A DNA stretch of 64,000 nucleotides, from contig JADHUV010000004.1 of assembly GCA_016784355.1 (NCBI GenBank), forward strand, positions 48,201 through 112,200. Direction: 5' to 3'. The notes below the pieces were generated by a model. That model made no database searches, was not told where the DNA came from, and saw nothing but the letters and a program-made list of their open reading frames with translations. The stretch comes from Nitrospira sp. (GTDB taxonomy: Bacteria > Nitrospirota > Thermodesulfovibrionia > UBA6902). The first letter of the stretch is position 1; each line of letters begins with the position of its first letter. The position numbers and the translations under genes were made by a program. Shown here piece by piece: positions 3,430-35,786 of the stretch.

Positions 3430-3654
3430 TTGCAATATAGAAGATTTCAGAGAAAAAAATTTTGCAGGTTCTGTGCTAATAAAGTAGAGGTTATTGATTA
3501 CAAGGATATTAAAACTTTGAGGCATTATCTTACTGACAGGGGTAAAATGGTTGCCGGACGTATGACAGGTAACTGTGCCAAGCATCAGAGGGCGTTGACC
3601 AGGGCCATAAAGCGGGCTCGTAACATAGCACTGCTGCCGTTTGTAGAAAAATAA
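3430..3654 (+). CDS. rpsR: 30S ribosomal protein S18
   Basis: FCRFC...IDYKD...[10 protein letters not shown] motif typical of S18. Confidence 0.9.
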
Positions 3655-5361: not shown

Positions 5362-5398
5362 GGTTTCCAGACATTAAATTTTTAATCCCCGCATTTAT

Positions 5399-5678
5399 AT
5401 GATTTACAGAACCATCTATGATTATACGGCTATGGCTCTTAGTGGAATACATACTTTTGCAGAGCCTGCCTTCCGGGATGGTTTTGACATAAAACAGCTG
5501 ACTGCTTTCATGATTAATGTCATCATATATCTTCGGTTTAGTCAGCGATCCTCTCGCGACGCTTAAGTGTGCCAATGAGATGAGACGACGCGGGCTTGGT
5601 GAGGATTTAATCAAAAAGGTTTTTTATAATAACCCTGCCGGTTTCCTCGGCCAGAGTCCGAAATTTCAGGCGAGTTGA
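5399..5678 (+). pseudogene. Remnant of an amidohydrolase-family gene; only about 90 C-terminal codons remain, in two overlapping frames
   Basis: C-terminal-type motif LIKKVFYNNPAGFLG. No plausible full-length ORF exists here. Confidence 0.25.
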
Positions 5679-6839: not shown

Positions 6840-7060
6840 CAATAATGGATTCCCGCCTTCGCGGGAATGACGCAATAATTACCGTGCTGACATCAGAGAG
6901 TAAAAGTGGTTTCCCGCCTTCTCGGGAATGACGCAACAATTACCATGCCGACATCAGAGAGTAAAAATGGTTTCCCTCCTTCGCGGGAATGACGCAACAA
7001 TTACCGTGCCGACATCAGAGAGTAATAATGGATTCCCTCCTTCGCGGGAATGACGGCTTA
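6840..7060. repeat. Tandem repeat of roughly 62 bp, about 3.6 copies. Each copy carries the palindrome TTCCCGC-CTTC-GCGGGAA.
   Basis: Direct reading: the units at about 6848, 6910, 6972 and 7034 are near-identical over their full length. Confidence 0.85.
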
Positions 7061-15195: not shown

Positions 15196-16901
15196 GATTT
15201 CCGCTCCATCAGAATGAAGGAAAACTCATAACCTTCCGCATCCTTCCATCCGCGGCCTGCAGCGCTTGGACTTTCGCTTATGTACAGGTTCCACTCCGCA
15301 ATATTGCGCGACAGGGACTGGTGGAACATATCAATATGGCGCTGCTCCAATGCCCAACCCTTTATGTGAAAGAGAAACCACTCCTGCTCGTCTATACTTT
15401 CGAGCACAACACCATCCGGGATGCTTCCGGTTATTGCCTCAAGAAAACCGGTCATCACCTGCTGCCTGTGCATAAATACTCTTTCAACTGCATCTTTCCG
15501 ATGTTTCAGACTGGTATTTTTGTCTTCCATTGCATCCCGTTTAGCAACAAGTTTTTGATATTCAGCGCTTTTATTAGACATTTTTTCATTTGCGCGCGCA
15601 ATTGTCCTGACCTCACCCTGCAGCGTTTCCGTCTCTGCCATTATTTTCCCCATAGATCTACTATGAGATATTTCGTAGAAACCAATAAATACAAGCAGAC
15701 ATGCCGTTGCAATATTAAGCCAGGCCATGGGCCGCTTATGCATGGCCGGCAGAGGAGGTTCTCCTGGAAGAAAGGGCGCAAGAAGATGAGATGACATACC
15801 CAGATAATGGCGCGAGCTCCCCAACAACGCATACCATGACTCTTTTTGAGACAACAGGGTACAGTCAAATTCTCCATTCAGTGAGAGGGGAAGCACTTTT
15901 CTATTCATCCGCTGCGCAAGGGCCGTCCCTAGATATTCTTTGTTAGGGTGTGATCCGGTAATGACCATTGCCTCCATATCCGCGGTAAGAACGGGACGGC
16001 ATAGTTCTGCAAGATCCTCCTCGCTAACAGAAATATTACAGGTCCTTCTATAGGCGCTTTGTGTGATCTCACCCTGTTCAATACTGGATACAGTAATATG
16101 TCCCTGCTCTATTTCCACCAGGCATTGTGCAGCAGGGGAGAGGGGCAGAAGTGCCGCGCTGGTCAATGCTTCAGGATATATTCTTTCCAGCCGAATTTCG
16201 CTGTTTCTCAGCGCCTGAAGCCATTCCCTCCCGATAGTTTCGTGTATTGCGCAGCATAATGTAAGCCCCGGCTGACTGCCTGCGGTTGTCGTGCTGTCTG
16301 ACCAGCCGCAATTCAGAGAATCTTCCAGGAGATGGAGCCGTTCCTGAATAGCAAGGCAATCTTCCAGCTGCTCACGATCAATAAAACCTTTTTCTATTGC
16401 TATTTCTCCAAAACGGGCAGGCAGCGTACCCCCGTGTCTTCCTGCGTAGCTTTCTTGCTTATCAAGCGTATCCAGTATTTGATCACGCTGAATGGCATCT
16501 ATATGTCCACGGGCTATCATTACCCAGCCGATATTGGGAGGAAGGGCAAGATCCTGTGTAAGCTCGTCCATTTCCCACCGGACCAGTTCTTCAATCTGTC
16601 CGGGAGCAATCTTCTTCCCCTGCGGAACGGGCAGTTTCAGCAGGGCAGGAACTGCGCCGGCACATACAAGCACAGCTTCTTTCGGTAAGGAAAGCCCTGC
16701 CTGTTTAAGTTGGCTCATTACCTGTTCAAGCGCCTGCCGGGCGACTACAGACCGGGTTTCTGCTGTCCCTTCAACCCGGAGAGATTCACCTTTTTTGGTT
16801 ATTATCATTGCCTTCAGGCCGAAGCCGTTTGCTTCAAGCGCCAATAACCGTTTTTTTTTTCTTTTTGTTAGCAGAGAGACGTGTTTAAGTATATTTTTCA
16901 T
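15192..16901 (-). CDS. gspL: GspL-like protein, a PilM-type cytoplasmic domain fused to a PilN-type TM/periplasmic domain
   Basis: 569 aa with a central transmembrane segment and a coiled coil after it. Codons 14-17 contain an A10 tract. Confidence 0.6.
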   Translation of the reverse strand: MKNILKHVSLLTKRKKKRLLALEANGFGLKAMIITKKGESLRVEGTAETRSVVARQALEQVMSQLKQAGLSLPKEAVLVCAGAVPALLKLPVPQGKKIAPGQIEELVRWEMDELTQDLALPPNIGWVMIARGHIDAIQRDQILDTLDKQESYAGRHGGTLPARFGEIAIEKGFIDREQLEDCLAIQERLHLLEDSLNCGWSDSTTTAGSQPGLTLCCAIHETIGREWLQALRNSEIRLERIYPEALTSAALLPLSPAAQCLVEIEQGHITVSSIEQGEITQSAYRRTCNISVSEEDLAELCRPVLTADMEAMVITGSHPNKEYLGTALAQRMNRKVLPLSLNGEFDCTLLSQKESWYALLGSSRHYLGMSSHLLAPFLPGEPPLPAMHKRPMAWLNIATACLLVFIGFYEISHSRSMGKIMAETETLQGEVRTIARANEKMSNKSAEYQKLVAKRDAMEDKNTSLKHRKDAVERVFMHRQQVMTGFLEAITGSIPDGVVLESIDEQEWFLFHIKGWALEQRHIDMFHQSLSRNIAEWNLYISESPSAAGRGWKDAEGYEFSFILMERKS

Positions 16902-22383: not shown

Positions 22384-22685
22384 TGGTTTAAATGTTTCAG
22401 ACAGGATCTATGGCTCTATAGAGTAACATAGGAATAACTGCGTGAAGTAAATGATTGACCGCTCTTTCCGGTACGCGTAAACAGCAGCTGGTATAGATAC
22501 CCATTGTAACATAATTTATGGAATCGCCATTTCGAAATTTAGAACTTGTCAATAGATATACTTTTTTCTTATAGCTGCTTGAAACAGCGAATAATGAATA
22601 TCGGACAAGAAATATCGAATAACGATGACAACGCCACCGATAAGTATATCTATCCTATTTACAACTGATATCTTATAATGATCTC

Positions 22686-24154: not shown

Positions 24155-24593
24155 TAAAAGTAGCAGACTAAGGCTCTGAGATAAATAGTATAATTCTCAT
24201 GTTACGCAGCTTTCTCAAGACGCGCTTATAATCTTGATGGATACTTTGTTTTGGCATCGGCAATAGCTCAAAAAGCAGGATGCTGCTTTTGGTAAACAAT
24301 GATAATCGTCTTGAACAGGTTGCACAGTTTTTTGAAAACACAATGACATACTATGTAGGGGCAGGTTTCAAACCTGCCCTTATATTCATTGCACCTATAG
24401 GCCTTGCGTGCTGCGTAGACGACAATAAACAGCGAATATCGAATTTCGAATAAGGAATGTCGAATGATGAAGGGAACGGCATAGAAGATTTTATTTTTTA
24501 CTTCGACATTCTCTTTTTCTGAATTCACTTTTATCTTTTTTAAATGCACTATACTGTGTATGCTCAGGCTGCAAAGAAAACAGGAGTATATTA

Positions 24594-25124
24594 GTGGCAT
24601 TAAAACCGACAATTTATAAATTAAAGATTACCTTATCTGATATCGACCGCGAGTATTATGAGACTCTGAATTTAACAGTAGCTCAACATCCTTCCGAAAC
24701 ACTTGAGCGAATGATGGCCCGCGTTCTGGCATACTGCATTAATGCGCAGGAACAGCTGGTATTTACCCAGGGAGTTTGTGCCGTGGATGAACCTGACATA
24801 TGGGCGCGCACATTGGATAATCAATTATCACTATGGATAGAGGTGGGCGAGCCGTCTGTTGATAAGATAAGAAAAGCTACACGCCTTTCTCAAACCGTTA
24901 TCGTTTATAGCTTTAATTCAAAATCGAATACATGGTGGGAGCAGGGACGCGCAAAAATCAATGAGCTAACGGCTTCTGTTTTTCAGATTCAGTGGAACAG
25001 TATTCAGGTATTGGCTGCACTGGTGAAGCGTACCATGGGTCTTTCAATTACTATTACGGAAGGTACTGCGTATATCACTGCCGAGGACGGGGGATGTGAG
25101 GTGTCCTGGGTGCTGTTGAATTAA
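24594..25124 (+). CDS. yaeQ: YaeQ family protein
   Basis: MALKPTIYKLKITLSDIDREYYE matches the YaeQ N-terminus. Confidence 0.75.
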   Translation: MALKPTIYKLKITLSDIDREYYETLNLTVAQHPSETLERMMARVLAYCINAQEQLVFTQGVCAVDEPDIWARTLDNQLSLWIEVGEPSVDKIRKATRLSQTVIVYSFNSKSNTWWEQGRAKINELTASVFQIQWNSIQVLAALVKRTMGLSITITEGTAYITAEDGGCEVSWVLLN

Positions 25125-25234
25125 ACAGCGAATGACGAATATCGAACAAGGAATATCGAATGATGAAGTTAACAGCAAGGAAGATGTCGAAGGCTGTTTT
25201 TTAACTTCGATATTCTCTTTTAAAACTCTCTATC

Positions 25235-25905: not shown

Positions 25906-26631
25906 AATGGTAACACATATGTTACTTATGGTCAATGGTTATTTGATATTACAGCCTGCAATACCTGCTATTAAATCTCGATTCATTCAGGCGTAATAAA
26001 AAATAGAAGGATGAGTGTTCCGCATAATAATCTATACGCGAAAAAAATACTCCAGCAGTTTTTGAATGGAAAACTACAGTCCCTGTCCCCTTAATGACCG
26101 TTAATTATAGCATTTAACAGCGAATATCGAATATCGAACAAGGAATGTCGAATGATGAAGTAAACGGCGCGGAAGAGTATGATCTTTGTCTTTATACTTC
26201 GACATTCGAAATTCGTCAATCGATATTCGACATTCTCCTTTAATCCTTTCATTCTTTTTTTCTTCCCCTGTCGGAATTTCTTACTCGGCAGATAATTGAT
26301 AAAAAAAGCTTTTGATCAAAAGGGTTATAAATATATTCTGGGTGAAAATCCTAACGACCGTTTGATATTGTCGGTATTACTTACAATAAAATGCATAAAA
26401 AATGGCATGAATAAATGATTAATAATAAATAAGCAATAAAATCAGTGTGTTACGGATTTGATGTGCAGTGGCCCTGTATTTGCAGGTATATAATAGATTT
26501 ATATGAAAAATATAAACCCAATAAAATCAGCCACTTATCAGTTGGTTTTATCAGCATTTAAATACAGCTTTCACAAATATATTTATAAGTAACGCGTTGC
26601 CCGGTTGCCGGGCAAGCAGGGAGGGACAACT

Positions 26632-26820: not shown

Positions 26821-28692
26821 ATGAGGAAGTTCAGCACACGAAATTTATTGATTATTAATAAGGCCCGGCAATGCCTTTTTGTTATAGGTCTGTTATTGGC
26901 CTTCACAATACCGGCATCCGCCTCAATCCCCGGCAGCATCAATTATCAGGGATATCTATCTGACGGCGCTGGTAATCCGGTCAGTGCTACTGTCAGCATT
27001 ACATTCTCTTTGTATAATGTAGACACGGCCGGAACATTTCTATGGACCGAGGCCCAATCGGTTGCAGTAATCAGCGGAGTCTTTGATGTAACGCTGGGGA
27101 ATCCTGCGAACCCATTGCCTGCAGGATTGTTTGAAGATCCTTTATGGCTTGGTATTAATGTGGCCGGTGATGGCGAGATGGTTCCGCGAAAAGCCCTGGC
27201 CAGTGTTGCATTTTCCTTCAAGGCCAATGATGCGTATACGGTCGGCGGCCGAACTGCGGCCAGCCTGGATCAGGCTGATCATGTATTGGATACAGGTAAT
27301 CCGCATCACATAACTACAGCACAGCTTCCTGCTGATATCACGCGCGACAGTGAGATTATGCCCATTGTACTGCTAAGAGATGGCCCCGGCTCTACACTTG
27401 ATGCCGATACAATTGATGGTCTTGATTCGAGCGATTTTTTTAATACAGCCAGTGATTATGGCCGGTATAAAGTTGCTAATGATCTCTACGAAGGAACCTC
27501 CACCCTGAGCTTTAAGTATGTTAATACGACCGGAGATACAATGACCGGCAATCTTAGTGTTATGGAACGTGTTGGGATTGGCATAGAAACTCCTTTGGCC
27601 AGGCTTCATGTACTGGAAAGCAATACGTCAGCTTCTGGACTGTTTGAAACCGGAGTCTCACAAAACTGGATCGGGTTTTCTACTTCCAATGGTTATCAAG
27701 GTTACGCCGGAGTCTTTTCCGGTGCTGATGATATAGAGATAGGGACCGGTCTGGGTAATACTACGGGCAGTGTAAATCTGGCCATAGGTACAATTCCAAA
27801 GCTCACGGTTAATCAGGAAGGCAATGTCGGCATTGGAACAACAAGTCCTGTTTACGGTCTGGACGTGCGCGGCAGTTCCAGCGGCTATCTTGGTTATTTT
27901 TTGAATGACAATAATTCAGTCGGGACAAGCAGTGATGCCTTTGGTATATTCGCCAGCGGTGATGCCTACGGCACAGTGACCGGCGAGGCTGTAGGTGGTG
28001 CCTTTACCGCTTACGGAGGAAGTTCGCAGGGGACTGCCTATGGAGTTCAGGTTTTCACAAATGCATATGGTTCCGCTGATGCGTATGGGGTCTATAGCGA
28101 TGCTACCGGCGGCTCAACGACCGGCAGAGAGTTCGCATTTTTTGGAAGAGGCAATAGTATATTTACCGGTAAGGTTGGAATCGGTACTGATGATCCTCAG
28201 GCAAAACTGCATGTTGATGGTCAGATAAAGATACAGGGCGGCTATTATGCAAATGGTGTGCTTTCATCCTTTGGTTACCACGTCAATGATTGTGACGGAG
28301 TAACTGAAAAGTTTGTACATATGGCTGCCCAGGGCGGCGTGGACTACGGCCTGTGCATGGAGAAAAATGAGCGTCCTGCTCAGGTATGGGGTGATGCATC
28401 TGAGACCTGTAAAATGCAGGGAAAGCGCCTGCCCGATTATGTTGAGTGGAGGAAGGCCTGTGACGGCTATACGTCTGGAGCGCCAGGCACACCGGATCCA
28501 TTTTATTCCAACATAACCGGCAACTATGAATGGGCTTCGTCTCGTCCCTCTGTACTTAACAGCGATGGAATGCGCGGACCATCTTCTGTATTAGCAGGGA
28601 TGCTAAGCTGCGAGACAACGTATGCAGACCGGGTCGATAGAGGCAATCATGTTGATAGCAGATATCAATACACCTTCCGATGCGTTCGATAA
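26821..28692 (+). CDS. Secreted protein with fibre-like VGIGT-x-P-x-AxLHV repeats and a C-terminal FGE-sulfatase / C-type-lectin-fold domain
   Basis: Signal peptide present. Repeats are VGIGIETPLARLHV, VGIGTTSPVYGLDV and VGIGTDDPQAKLHV. The C-terminus reads GKRLPDYVEWRKAC...YEWASS...FRCVR. Confidence 0.6.
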   Translation: MRKFSTRNLLIINKARQCLFVIGLLLAFTIPASASIPGSINYQGYLSDGAGNPVSATVSITFSLYNVDTAGTFLWTEAQSVAVISGVFDVTLGNPANPLPAGLFEDPLWLGINVAGDGEMVPRKALASVAFSFKANDAYTVGGRTAASLDQADHVLDTGNPHHITTAQLPADITRDSEIMPIVLLRDGPGSTLDADTIDGLDSSDFFNTASDYGRYKVANDLYEGTSTLSFKYVNTTGDTMTGNLSVMERVGIGIETPLARLHVLESNTSASGLFETGVSQNWIGFSTSNGYQGYAGVFSGADDIEIGTGLGNTTGSVNLAIGTIPKLTVNQEGNVGIGTTSPVYGLDVRGSSSGYLGYFLNDNNSVGTSSDAFGIFASGDAYGTVTGEAVGGAFTAYGGSSQGTAYGVQVFTNAYGSADAYGVYSDATGGSTTGREFAFFGRGNSIFTGKVGIGTDDPQAKLHVDGQIKIQGGYYANGVLSSFGYHVNDCDGVTEKFVHMAAQGGVDYGLCMEKNERPAQVWGDASETCKMQGKRLPDYVEWRKACDGYTSGAPGTPDPFYSNITGNYEWASSRPSVLNSDGMRGPSSVLAGMLSCETTYADRVDRGNHVDSRYQYTFRCVR

Positions 28693-28709
28693 GAGTGCAT
28701 TATTAAAAG

Positions 28710-29530
28710 CGAATAACGAATATCGAACAAGGAATGTCGAATGATGAAGTGAGCGGCGTGGAAGAATATGATGCTAATTTTTTACTTCGAGATTCGAAAT
28801 GCGTCAATCGATATTCGAAATTCTCCTTTTTTGATTCACTATTTAAAGACTGACAGAAACAGCGAATAACGAATATCGAACAAGGAATGTCGAATGATGA
28901 AGTGAGTGGCGTGGAAGAATATGATGCTAATTTTTTACTTCGACATTCGAAATTCGTCAATCGATATTCGAAATTCTCCTTTTTTTGATTCACTATTTAA
29001 AGACTGATAGAACCAGCGAATAACGAATATCGAACAAGGAATCTCGAATGATGAAGTGAGCGGCGTGGAAGAATATGATGCTAATTTTTTTACTTCGAGA
29101 TTCGAAATTCGTCAATCGATATTCGAAATTCTCCTTTTTTTGATTCCCTATTTAAAAACTGATAATAACAGCGAATAACGAATATCGAACAAGGAATGTC
29201 GAATGATGAAGTGAGCGGCGTGGAAGAATATGATGCTAATTTTTTACTTCGACATTCGAAATTCGTCAATCGATATTCGAAATTCTCCTTTTTTGATTCA
29301 CTATTTAAAGACTGATAGAACCAGCGAATAACGAATATCGAACAAGGAATGTCGAATGATGAAGTGAGCGGCGTGGAAGAATATGATGCTAATTTTTTAC
29401 TTCGAGATTCGAAATTCGTCAATCGATATTCGAAATTCTCCTTTTTTTGATTCCCTATTTAAAAACTGATAATAACAGCGAATAACGAATATCGAACAAG
29501 GAATGTCGAATGATGAAGTCAACGGCGTGG
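28710..29530. repeat. Tandem array of about six copies of a unit of roughly 152 bp, of the same family as dispersed copies elsewhere in the window
   Basis: The unit recurs at about 28710, 28860, 29010, 29165, 29320 and 29465. Each unit contains inverted arms CGAATATCGA...GAATGTCGAA / TTCGACATTC...TCGATATTCG. Confidence 0.85.
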
Positions 29531-29665
29531 CAGATGCCTGTCGACCGTTGTTTTACATTATTATTTTATATAGAAAATAAATATGCCTGATCATCGCTTT
29601 TTCTGTTACAATTACAACGATCTCAAAAGCAATCTCAATAATTACTTATCAATGCTAGAGGATAC

Positions 29666-29957: not shown

Positions 29958-31322
29958 ATGAAATTTTCCAATGAAGAGATACTTGAAACGATAGGCATGA
30001 TCGCCGAGGATAAGCTTGATATCAGGACCGTGACGCTGGGCATTTCCCTGCTTGATTGTTCCGATCCTGATCCGACTGCCTGTGCTCGTAAGGTCCGTGA
30101 AAAGATTCTGGCAAAGGGTGCAGATTTAAGCAGAAAAGCTGATTTCATTTCTGATGAATATGGACTGCCTATTGTCAATAAAAGAATCAGTCTCACTCCC
30201 ATCTCTCTGGTGGTTCCGATAGCTGATCCTGCTGCGTTTATTGAGGTTGCGCATGCAGTGGACAGGGCGGCTGCTGAGATTGATGTCAACTTCGTTGGCG
30301 GCTACACCGCTATGATTCAGAAGGGTGAAACGTCTATCGACAGGGCCATGATTGAGGCGATGCCGGAAGTTCTCTCAACTACCACTCGTTTTTGTGCCTC
30401 TGTGATTTTGGCATCTACTAAAGCCGGTATAAACATGGATGGCTGTTACACAATGAGTAAGGTGATGAAAGATACTGCCGCGAGAACGGCAAAGGATGAT
30501 GGGATTGGTTGCGCGAAATTAGTACTTTTTGCCAATCCCGTTGAAGACAATCCTTTTATGGCTGGCGGATTCTATGGCACGGGAGAGTCTGAAAGTTCCA
30601 TACTCGTCGGTGTAAGCGGCCCCGGGGCGGTACGTCGTGCCCTTGAAAGACTGGGACCAGATGCTGATCTTGGCGAGGTTGCTGAGACAATCAAAAAGAC
30701 TGCCTTTAAAATTACCCGTGCCGGTGAACTGGTGGGTAAGAAGTTGGCTAAAATCCTTGGAGTTGCTTTTGGCAATCTTGATCTTTCCCTTGCACCTACA
30801 CCTGCGGAAGGTGACTCTGTCGGTCAGATTCTGGAGACCATGGGCCTTGCCATGCCCGGTGCGCCAGGCTCAACGGCGGCGCTGATGATGCTGAATGACG
30901 CGGTGAAAAAAGGAGGCCTCTTTGCCTCCTCATCGGTCGGAGGTCTATCCGGTGCATTCATACCGATAAGTGAAGATGCATCCATGATCAGGGCAGCAGA
31001 AGCAGGAGCAATAACTCTTGAAAAACTTGAAGCAATGACAAGCGTCTGCTCAGTGGGTCTGGATATGATAGCTGTTCCCGGTGATACAAGCGCTGAGACC
31101 CTGGCCGCAGTTATAGCCGATGAAATGGCTATTGGCTGTGCCAACAATAAAACGACTGCAGTGAGAATAATTCCGGCTCCCGGCAAGAAGGTAGGAGATT
31201 CTGTTTATTTTGGCGGGCTTCTTGGAAGTGCCCCGATAATGGCAGTGAGTCAGGTCTCCTCAGAAACTTTTGTAAAAAGAGGCGGTCGTATCCCTGCCCC
31301 TCTTCAATCGTTGAAGAACTGA
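29958..31322 (+). CDS. UPF0210/PFL-like family protein; start taken at MKFSNEE just after the ACT gene stop
   Basis: About 455 aa. This is the conserved partner of the ACT UPF0237 gene. Confidence 0.65.
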
Positions 31323-31564
31323 TAACCGCGAATAACGAATATCGAACAGGGAATGTCGTATGATGAAGGGGACAGCACGGAGGAGTATGGTGCTTGTTTT
31401 TATACTTCGACATTTGTAATTCGTCAATCGATATTCGATATTCGATATTCTTTTTTGATTCTTTCCCTTACACTTACATCTACAGAAGGTGAGTCTGCTG
31501 GTCAAATTCTGGGGATCATAGGCTTTGCCCCGGTGCGCCAGGCTCAACTGCAGAATCCGCTTTG

Positions 31565-34461: not shown

Positions 34462-34694
34462 TATAATCTTAGCTCATTTTACGCCGACTTTCACGCAGCA
34501 AGATGGCACGTCTAATAAAGCGGAATGTTTGTTTTACTTCGACATTCGTAATTCGTCAATCTATATTCGATATTCTCCTTTTTTCATTTATTATCTGAAA
34601 CTGTTTGAAACAGCGAATAATGAATATCGAACAAGGAATCTCGAATGTCGAAGTGTGTTTATTTCCACATTTATACTACGAAAATCGATATTCG

Positions 34695-35786
34695 TCATTT
34701 GCTATTATAAGGTTCATAATCTGTGTATCCTTTCGCTCCAGGTGTATACCACAGTGACATGTCCTCAAAAGGATTCAGAGGCCAGTTATTTTTGAATCGT
34801 TCCGGTAAATCAGGGTTCGTAATGAAAGGGCGGCCAAAGGCAATCATATCAGCATTTCCGGCTGCAATACGTTCTTCAGCATCTTTTTGAGTATGACCGC
34901 AATTGCCGATTATTATCCCTTCATACACCGCTCTGAATTCAGTCAGGGTCATTGGCTCCCCTTTCTCATGAAAACCGAAGCCAAGCCCATCCATTATATG
35001 CAGATAGGCAAGATTGTATTTATTTAATTCTTCAGCGACATAAAGATATGTTTCTCTAAAGTCCTCGCTTCCCATATCATTGAAAACTCCATTTGGAGAA
35101 ATGCGGACACCAATCTGATCGCATGGCCAGATCTCAGACACAGCCTCAATCACTTCTTTCAGAAACCGAAATCTATTCTCGATGCTTCCCCCGTATTGAT
35201 CCGTGCGAAGATTTGTTTTTGAATCAAGGAATTGATTTATCAAGTATCCGTTGGCAGCATGAACCTCTACCCCGGAGAAACCTGCTGCTCTGGCATTGAT
35301 CGCAGCCTTGCGGTAATCATTTATAGTAGCGCGGATTTCATCTTCTGATAATGCACGCGGGGTTTCGTATGGCTTCTTACCAAGAGGGGTATGGATCAAG
35401 TCACCATTGAGTTTAACTTCGGATGCAGACACCGGTAGTTTGCCCTTGTGGAAATCACTGTGCGAGGCCCTGCCGCAATGCCAAAGTTGCAGAAACATGG
35501 GAGTCCATGTCGACTTCACCATATTGGTAACTTTCTGCCAGCCCTCAATCATTTGATCGGTATAGATACCCGGCGAATCAATCCAGCCGTTACCCTGCGC
35601 TGAAATTACTGTCGCTTCGGTTATCAGCAGTCCCGCTCCGGCTCGCTGATGATAATAATTTGCCATCATGTTATTCGGTATGCGTTCTGTCCCGGCACGA
35701 CCTCTAGTCATGGGTGCCAAGGCGATTCTATTTTTTAATCGTAATTTCCCCATTGCGAGCGGTTCAAATAAGTTAGTAATTCCCAT
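34695..35786 (-). CDS. NADH:flavin oxidoreductase of the Old Yellow Enzyme family, NemA-like
   Basis: N-terminal RIALAPMTR motif and the OYE motif HAANGYLINQFL. Confidence 0.85.
   Translation of the reverse strand: MGITNLFEPLAMGKLRLKNRIALAPMTRGRAGTERIPNNMMANYYHQRAGAGLLITEATVISAQGNGWIDSPGIYTDQMIEGWQKVTNMVKSTWTPMFLQLWHCGRASHSDFHKGKLPVSASEVKLNGDLIHTPLGKKPYETPRALSEDEIRATINDYRKAAINARAAGFSGVEVHAANGYLINQFLDSKTNLRTDQYGGSIENRFRFLKEVIEAVSEIWPCDQIGVRISPNGVFNDMGSEDFRETYLYVAEELNKYNLAYLHIMDGLGFGFHEKGEPMTLTEFRAVYEGIIIGNCGHTQKDAEERIAAGNADMIAFGRPFITNPDLPERFKNNWPLNPFEDMSLWYTPGAKGYTDYEPYNSK

Follow-up and report, generated by a model that had tools for sequence, protein, structure and literature searches.

Intergenic hairpin repeats in a Nitrospira contig as probable gene-less copies of an S23p-type gene cassette

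We analysed a 64,000-nt stretch of DNA from Nitrospira sp. (GenBank assembly GCA_016784355.1, contig JADHUV010000004.1, positions 48,201 to 112,200 of the forward strand), hereafter the window, in which a hairpin repeat of about 153 nt forms a tandem array and several dispersed copies. In our reading, to which we assign a probability of about 0.7, the repeat is what internal deletion, with loss of the gene, has left of a hairpin gene cassette of the S23p type; S23p is the protein family named after the intervening sequences (IVS) of 23S rRNA. The repeat is not specific to the window genome; the same arms are present in at least 120 loci of many phyla. In its full-length form the hairpin encloses one small gene for a four-helix-bundle protein, and the short hairpins of other genomes grade into this form through a series of internal deletions.

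Structure of the repeat unit

In a complete unit the left arm is followed by a loop of about 35 nt, then by the right arm and finally by a T-rich spacer; the ends read TAAACAGCGAAT... and ...TCTCCTTTTTTGATTC. The arms are 40–60 nt long, 70–78% complementary and 32–36 nt apart; the original prediction, made from the letters of the window, had recognised the hairpin and had put its loop somewhat too high, at about 45 nt. The RNA fold of one array unit reaches -43.7 kcal/mol (z = -4.2), with 0 of 200 shuffled sequences folding as well, and complete units fold at -42 to -44 kcal/mol with z values of about -4. A long terminal stem, which is a defining feature of the 23S rRNA IVS, is present in the window units.

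A point overlooked at first is that each arm contains sub-repeats. It is a series of 7-nt modules, GAAACAGC GAATAAC GAATATC GAACAAG GAATGTC GAATGAT GAAGT, and the pattern GAA-N4-GAA-N4-GAA-N4-GAA has 31 matches in the window against 0.02 expected. The left arm of the window units comprises five or six of these heptads and includes AAGGA and ATGATGAAG.

Distribution of the arms

A 22-nt degenerate arm motif, scanned against genomes at one per species, matched at least 120 loci, compared with about 9 expected by chance according to our own estimate from pattern degeneracy and collection size. By a hand count over 80 titles among the matches listed, about 34 loci belong to Desulfobacterota or 'delta' lineages, 21 to Bacteroidota, 11 to Planctomycetota and 5 to Ignavibacteria-type organisms; Verrucomicrobia, Balneolaceae, Gemmatimonadota, Nitrospinae and unclassified organisms make up the remainder. 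Flavisolibacter ginsengisoli DSM 18119, Flaviaesturariibacter flavus 17J68-12 and delta proteobacterium NaphS2 are among the cultured carriers matched. The matches are in register: the ordered modules (GAATATC)1-3, GAACAAG, GAAT[G/T/A]TC, GAAT[G/T]AT and GAAGT are common to the loci, an 8-mer, GAACCGCA, is optional in the arms, and the complements stand on the other side. The loops that separate the arms range from 6 to 204 nt; within one genome they are shared, and from genome to genome they are unrelated. Many of the loci lie at contig ends, as expected of a multi-copy repeat.

The full-length cassette and its deletion series

Pfam searches of 150 open reading frames (ORFs) flanking the elements returned housekeeping genes of all kinds, and only PF05635, the '23S rRNA-intervening sequence protein' (S23p) family, was physically linked to the arms. 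The accessory protein Avd of diversity-generating retroelements (DGRs) is related to this family. The cassette protein matches NCBIfam TIGR02436, 'four helix bundle protein', with an E value of 1e-22, and its closest solved structure is PDB 2RLD (E = 4e-16), with five chains. The complete cassette measures about 440–520 nt and carries one small gene, for a four-helix-bundle protein of about 125 amino acids, between inverted arms of five to seven 7-nt modules each. Its left arm holds an AAGGA ribosome-binding site (AACAAGGAAT) and the start codon (GA ATG ATG AAG or GA ATG TCG AAG). Two examples (L001 and L043; loci in other genomes are given L numbers) illustrate the arrangement. The left heptad arm ends ...AACAAGGAAT..GA ATG TCG AAG, so that the ATG lies inside the last left heptad; the gene has 124–126 codons; and the right arm, ACTTCATAATTCGAAATTCCTTGTTCGATATTC, starts with the final codons and the stop of that gene (AAA ACT TCA TAA). 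With the ribosome-binding site and start in the left arm and the stop in the right arm, the whole gene is thus placed in the loop of a stem of about 40 bp.

Searching all loci with the cassette proteins by tblastn revealed a graded series of deletions inside the loops. One locus retains residues 1–71 fused directly to KTS and the stop codon (L097), others retain residues 1–50 (L075), 1–36 (L084) or 1–28 (L110), and one retains a 3' piece covering residues 96–124 (L085). Chiefly because of this series, we take the short hairpins for cassettes with internal deletions and not for hairpins awaiting a gene.

The association of gene and arms extends well beyond these genomes. A metagenome scan with protein alignment returned at least 567 relatives, of which the best 80 were analysed and 76 were assessable. 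Comparing the 90 nt ahead of the ATG with the 90 nt that follow the stop revealed an inverted repeat for 58 of these 76, and GAA-N4 heptad runs flank the gene on both sides in 40 of them. Self-identity at a lag of 7 around 73 homologous genes was 18.5/28 upstream and 18.0/28 downstream, compared with about 11.5 at lags 4–6 and 8–10 and 11.0 inside the gene. More distant lineages show the same design with other heptads (AATATCC/CCAAT-type, GCAGAAT-type and GAACCTT-type), and their cassettes usually retain AACAAGGAAT ahead of the ATG. Arm type tracks protein lineage, the ratio of TCGAA to TCCAA arms being 31:1 above 65% protein identity and 7:18 below it (Fisher p = 2e-8), which indicates that gene and arms form one evolving unit. 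None of 40 full-length cassettes tested lies in an rRNA gene, as judged by the lack of any match to large-subunit rRNA.

Two further observations concern individual cassettes. The cassette ORF of L164 is interrupted at about 683–835 by some 150 nt that start with another heptad arm (GAACGTC CAACATC GAACGTC CAACATC GAACATC GAATAAT GATG), which looks like the nested insertion of a second element. Separately, an Acido-Lenti-1 RNA (Rfam RF01687, 45 bits) lies at 1053–1097 of L128, about 220 nt upstream of a full-length cassette.

Derivation of the window units

The arms of the window units match those of gene-carrying cassettes closely. The left arm of copy D (Table 1) agrees at 39 of 39 positions with the 5' arm of L164, a full-length cassette, up to and including the ATGATGAAG start, and the left arms of the array units agree with that cassette arm at 38 of 39. 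The diverged left arm of copy A still matches the arms of full-length cassettes at 89–93%. On the other side of the hairpin, the window right arm agrees with an arm in L153 at 46 of 51 positions, and the outermost module, AACAGCGAAT, also stands at the ends of L150 and L180. Between these arms the 'gene' of the window units has shrunk to ATG ATG AAG TGA.

Several results weigh against this derivation, or against a mobile origin of the cassette. No four-helix-bundle gene or fragment was detected in the window by tblastn, and comparison of the window loops with the N-terminal coding region of the cassette gene gave p values from 0.01 to 0.97 against shuffles, which is not significant; the loop of copy D reads ...E E Y D L, similar to the conserved (K/E)YDLEERL, at a level of loop homology that is likewise not significant. 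Since the window loops give no demonstrable coding origin, the derivation rests on the arms and on the deletion series of other genomes. The opposite course of events, with the gene entering heptad hairpins that already existed, keeps a small residual probability. Pairing at the most variable arm position is also no better than chance, holding in 32 of 81 elements against 34.4 expected, and the window copies show one compensatory pair among 39. No covariation of the kind that selection on pairing would leave was seen. Target-site duplications, a mark of mobility that the original prediction had named, could not be seen at 22 elements with clear ends or in the copies of the window, although fuzzy ends could hide short ones. 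Complementarity between the flanks shows no excess (4.6 compared with 5.0 in the control, p = 0.79), and no transposase family is enriched among the 150 flanking ORFs in Pfam. The arm motif matched only 1 contig among viral contigs, and the full-length cassette L139 gave no blastn match in a plasmid collection; we infer mobility of the cassette solely from its presence at multiple loci in multiple phyla. Finally, a consensus terminator scan makes no call at the units, whose stems are long and AT-rich, with a T-run after the right arm in the window copies.

The pairing results indicate that what is conserved in the arms is their sequence and not their structure, and this points to protein recognition or to recent common descent. 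The suggestion that the repeat is a family of structured RNA genes also finds no support: Rfam, at gathering and E-value thresholds, returned nothing relevant for the repeat, only chance-level matches to miRNA-like hairpins, and neither rRNA nor any other Rfam family was found in the window. A full-text literature search with the arm sequences gave no relevant paper.

The flanks also bear on one candidate that we rejected. A palindrome that extends into the flanks, or insertion into the tips of host hairpins, does not fit elements whose flanks show no excess complementarity; an imperfect extension of the palindrome, by 10–20 nt, was seen in L045 and L050 only.

Repeat copies in the window

Every copy lies in one 12-kb stretch of the window (22.5–34.7 kb), on the + strand and between called genes, and most stand at a stop codon or a few bases from one (Table 1); the intergenic placement and each of the six dispersed or partial copies reported earlier are confirmed. 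Tandem Repeats Finder places the array at 28708–29534 with a period of 153, 5.4 copies and 94% matches, in agreement with the repeat family of about 152 bp first described. The array itself had been given as six copies, a slight overstatement, for on reading it consists of five complete units of 153–155 nt and a sixth left arm that has no right arm and continues into unique sequence. The 41-nt left arm occurs 10 times in the window with at most 3 mismatches, always on the + strand, where 100 shuffles gave an expectation of 0. Two further, more diverged left arms lie at about 22585 and 34611, and right arms number eight or more. In copies B and C the right arm is short by about 28 nt, or four heptads.

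Table 1. Copies of the repeat and an associated gene fragment in the window
Feature	Coordinates	Strand	Composition	Context	Fold (kcal/mol)	z
Copy A	22527..22628	+	Decayed two-unit junction, by reading the sequence: right-arm remnant 22527-22568, T-rich spacer, diverged left arm 22581-22627, no right arm after
Copy B	24426..24519	+	Full left arm (TAAACAGC GAATATC GAATTTC GAATAAG GAATGTC GAATGAT GAAG), 28-nt loop, shortened right arm reduced to ACTTCGACATTC, then T-run		-18.3	-1.5
Copy C	25122..25221	+	Left arm full, right arm shortened	First base on TAA stop codon of YaeQ gene; convergent genes, YaeQ on + and 108-aa ORF on -	-21.5	-2.05
Copy D	26114..26243	+	Complete hairpin unit, 49-nt arms, 78% complementary		-42.8	-4.3
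Tandem array	28705..29534	+	Complete units start 28709, 28862, 29016, 29171, 29324; lone sixth left arm 29478	Between stop of 623-aa ORF (28692) and conserved promoter-like region of ACT/UPF0210 operon (start 29666)
Copy E	31323..31459	+	Complete hairpin unit	1 base past native TGA stop of UPF0210 gene (native end established from relatives); between convergent genes	-42.1	-3.95
UPF0210 interior fragment	31460..31529	+	81% identical copy of 30782-30851 (70 nt)	Directly after copy E
Copy F	34528..34706	+	About 1.5 units, first left arm lost: right arm 34532-34582, spacer, left arm 34606-34654, decayed right arm ~34660-34700	Between two - strand genes	-37.7	-4.6

The cluster looks like the outcome of local duplication. 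The copies share a single orientation, and the repeating unit of the array takes in the spacer. The spacer's last bases (AAGACTGATAGAACC) resemble the native UPF0210 3' end that precedes copy E (AAGAACTGATAACC), and the UPF0210 fragment that follows copy E is the trace of a partial gene duplication with the element at its junction. The idea that the repeat is proliferating in this particular genome gives way, on this evidence and that of the wider distribution, to one of a cross-phylum element whose copies here appear to have been multiplied in place. Comparison with relatives that are 88–90% identical in UPF0210 yielded no clean definable empty site, since synteny stops exactly at the gene end.

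One relative deserves a separate remark. In L206, whose UPF0210 protein is 90% identical to that of the window, another heptamer, AATTACT/AATTACA, occurs as direct repeats on both sides of the ACT/UPF0210 operon (at about 3445–3560 and 5366–5420; also in L207), in the positions held in the window by the array and copy E.

The window species is also represented by assembly GCA_014382155.1. Among same-species assemblies, two contigs stop within the array (L123 and L124) and one has a run of Ns inside it (L121, about 16120–16900). The exact number of array units is therefore assembly-dependent, and the repeat is a practical cause of assembly breaks.

A second tandem repeat, of 61 nt in 3.5 copies with 92% matches, occupies positions 6844–7055 of the window. 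Each of its units contains a GC-rich hairpin, GATTCCCGCCTTCGCGGGAATGAC, whose motif GGATTCCCGCCTGCGCGGGAATGAC also adjoins a heptad element in a metagenome-assembled genome of Pirellulales (L035); it may be another cross-phylum hairpin repeat.

Alternative explanations

The signs of local duplication raise the question of whether the repeat is nothing but local satellite DNA, a hairpin segment multiplied by slippage or unequal crossing-over, with neither mobility nor outside relatives. All four observations just described, namely the + strand copies confined to 22.5–34.7 kb, the spacer within the tandem unit, the duplicated gene fragment beside copy E and the likeness of the spacer to the gene end ahead of it, would follow from such a history. 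It accounts for the cluster, but not for the origin or the sequence of the unit, and we judge it unlikely given that the same arms, up to 39 of 39 positions identical, surround TIGR02436 genes and recur across phyla. A classical miniature inverted-repeat transposable element (MITE), that is, a non-autonomous cut-and-paste element with terminal inverted repeats and a transposase acting in trans, would explain a small, non-coding, multi-copy unit with inverted arms, the near-identical copies, loops included, on different contigs of one genome (L045/L050 and L018/L063) and the nested insertion in the L164 ORF. The missing target-site duplications, the lack of an enriched transposase family near the elements, the fact that the full-length form, where seen, encodes a four-helix-bundle protein and no transposase domain, and the conservation of the entire 40-nt arm instead of its tips alone make it quite improbable. 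What survives of the MITE-like label in the original prediction is the relation it implied, for the window units appear to be gene-less, internally deleted versions of a longer gene-carrying element; a transposase partner and target-site duplications are what it lacks. The parallel label, REP-like (after repetitive extragenic palindromic sequences), we abandon, because the unit is not a short GTAG-type palindrome and no gene for a REP-associated tyrosine transposase (RAYT) turned up.

The elements might instead be host hairpins under selection, serving as bidirectional intrinsic terminators or as 3'-end stabilisers in the manner of REP sequences and bacterial interspersed mosaic elements (BIME), or of enterobacterial repetitive intergenic consensus (ERIC) sequences. 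Their positions suit such a role: 91 of 123 elements are intergenic by crude gene calls, they stand at or just past stop codons, and convergent gaps are enriched and divergent gaps depleted (21 elements in convergent gaps, 41 in tandem and 6 in divergent ones, where the background counts are 85, 313 and 84). The T-run after the right arm in the window copies fits too, as does the lack of a fixed orientation to the neighbouring gene (25 opposite, 15 same), which is expected of a symmetric hairpin. We nevertheless give this explanation little credence. Pairing at variable positions shows no excess, the flanking runs across the wider family are mixed (A...T in some elements, T...A in others), the AT-rich stems are far longer than terminator stems and draw no call from the terminator scan, and the idea offers no reason for an arm with a conserved ribosome-binding site and ATG. 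In one locus, moreover, the element has a canonical GC-rich terminator just upstream of it and is thus not needed as a terminator there; that terminator hairpin, AGCCTCTGT TTTC ACAGAGGCT TTTT, occupies 2677–2704 of L067 and immediately precedes the heptad element. A regulatory role may all the same be compatible with the cassette as a secondary, exapted one. Very far down the scale of probability is a reading of the repeats as integron attC sites, or as a component of a DGR beside a lectin-like gene, the 623-aa ORF that precedes the array. Short + strand genes precede the repeats, with cassette-like intervals of 696, 992 and 1845 nt, the phyla involved are known to carry chromosomal integrons, the C-terminus of the 623-aa ORF reads ...YQYTFRCVR, and the cassette protein has Avd as a relative. 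Against this, the unit ends have no RYYYAAC/GTTRRRY core sites, there is no integrase among the ORFs near the cluster, the genes involved (ACT/UPF0210, YaeQ and TrkA-like) are of conserved housekeeping type, and the 3' end of the 623-aa gene has no template repeat anywhere in the window. No reverse transcriptase was identified near the cluster, where the search for one was confined, no whole-window scan having been run.

The 623-aa ORF (26821–28692) is of some interest in its own right. It has a signal-peptide-like start and no Pfam match, and its C-terminus (...GNYEWASS...YQYTFRCVR) resembles the lectin- or formylglycine-generating-enzyme-type ends of DGR variable proteins.

Discussion

If the window repeat is, as we propose, a gene-less S23p-type cassette, its units would have kept their arms, together with a ribosome-binding site and ATG that are now useless, after the gene had gone. 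Read-through transcription from the upstream gene would cross the unit, and the arms could then pair into a long double-stranded RNA stem. By analogy with the 23S rRNA IVS of Coxiella, Leptospira and Salmonella, for which cleavage by RNase III has been demonstrated in experiments, this enzyme might cut this stem of about 40 bp, in which case the units would act as sites of 3'-end processing or decay and not as genes. They could possibly also serve as transcription barriers, perhaps against entry into the promoter region of the ACT/UPF0210 operon. Growth of the 12-kb cluster and its array would have proceeded mainly by local duplication and unequal recombination between units, and not by transposition, whereas the original arrival of the cassette and its wide spread would call for some mechanism of mobility, possibly one that depends on the four-helix-bundle protein.

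A bolder extension is rather doubtful. In it, the heptad arms may be a binding array for a ring-shaped four-helix-bundle protein, with about five heptads per arm for five subunits, through which the protein controls, and perhaps copies or moves, its own cassette in the absence of a transposase; gene-less hairpins such as those of the window would then be non-autonomous passengers or decoys. Were this true, it would describe a new kind of mobile or self-regulating element and would explain both how the rRNA intervening sequences originated and why 7-nt repeats are, as has long been noted, in excess in bacterial intergenic DNA.

Under the cassette reading, a class of hairpin repeats that lie between genes in many phyla and break metagenome assemblies acquires a concrete candidate identity; in the right frames these repeats translate into peptides such as ...FDIRYS.... 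The reading would make rRNA one landing site of a far wider hairpin gene cassette that resides mainly between ordinary genes and usually survives as the stem alone, and would connect the four-helix-bundle/Avd-like family, the intervening sequences of rRNA and the over-represented 7-nt repeats of bacterial intergenic regions. For the window two predictions follow: several transcripts should have stems sensitive to RNase III in their 3' region, and the tandem array just ahead of the ACT/UPF0210 operon should be unstable.

Comparison with known systems

MITEs and the REPIN/RAYT system resemble the present family in that a longer form, with the same ends and a gene between them, is far less numerous than the short non-coding units with inverted repeats, and in being intergenic, multi-copy and assembly-breaking. 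They differ in that neither target-site duplications nor a transposase or RAYT (HUH) gene turned up here, RAYT being absent from the leading Pfam families of the flanking ORFs; the partner is instead a small helical-bundle protein, and conservation of the arms across phyla extends over about 40 nt. The REP/REPIN-RAYT system is moreover built on GTAG-type palindromes of 20–40 nt with a RAYT Y1 transposase, whereas the window unit is 110–155 nt long and has heptad arms. The Avd protein of DGRs belongs to the same pentamer-forming four-helix-bundle superfamily as the cassette protein (PMC10053308; PDB 2RLD, five chains), but the window has no template/variable repeat pair and Avd in DGRs is not described between heptad arms.

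Intergenic repeats with a 7-nt period have been described in several groups of bacteria: TAACTGA heptamers in Beggiatoaceae, Cyanobacteria and Bacteroidetes (PMC4679880), GGGAATC heptamers in Xanthomonas and Nostoc (PMC4692102) and heptanucleotide elements in Geobacter (PMC2700814). Like the present family, these repeats, which include the short tandemly repeated repetitive (STRR) sequences of cyanobacteria, are intergenic, lie near the end of the upstream ORF, have a patchy cross-phylum distribution and have no known function. They are mostly direct tandem copies of one heptamer, while the window family combines unlike heptads in a fixed order, in two inverted arms and tied to one gene family. 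We regard the tie between the published intergenic heptamers and the cassette family as a lead, not a result.

The closest parallel is the S23p IVS of Coxiella burnetii, Leptospira and Brucella (PMC4990558). In Coxiella burnetii, the IVS of 23S rRNA is described as a selfish element of 428 nt with a terminal stem of 28 bp and a ribosome-binding site; between this site and the start codon of S23p stand two or three tandem copies of the heptamer GACAGAT. The RNase III site lies at the first repeat, the number of heptamers varies by strain, and one strain has a 176-bp deletion in the ORF; the authors concluded that the RNA is more important than the protein (PMC4990558). The window units and the 40 full-length relatives tested differ from the S23p IVS in standing between protein-coding genes and not in a 23S rRNA helix (9, 25 or 45). 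The window units differ further in their heptamers, which are of the GAATATC type, in forming a tandem array and in having no ORF, which relatives such as L001, L043 and L126–L205 possess; RNase III cutting, established for the IVS, is a prediction for the window units. The design is otherwise the same. Both systems have a stem of terminal repeats around a PF05635 four-helix-bundle gene of about 120 amino acids, with the ribosome-binding site and tandem heptamers of variable number within the stem just upstream of the ATG; in both, deletions erode the ORF and spare the RNA stem, and the IVS, too, is considered selfish and horizontally transferred. The window unit is thus best viewed as a probable S23p-type intervening-sequence cassette that resides outside rRNA and has lost its gene, and so as a new variant relative to the rRNA form.

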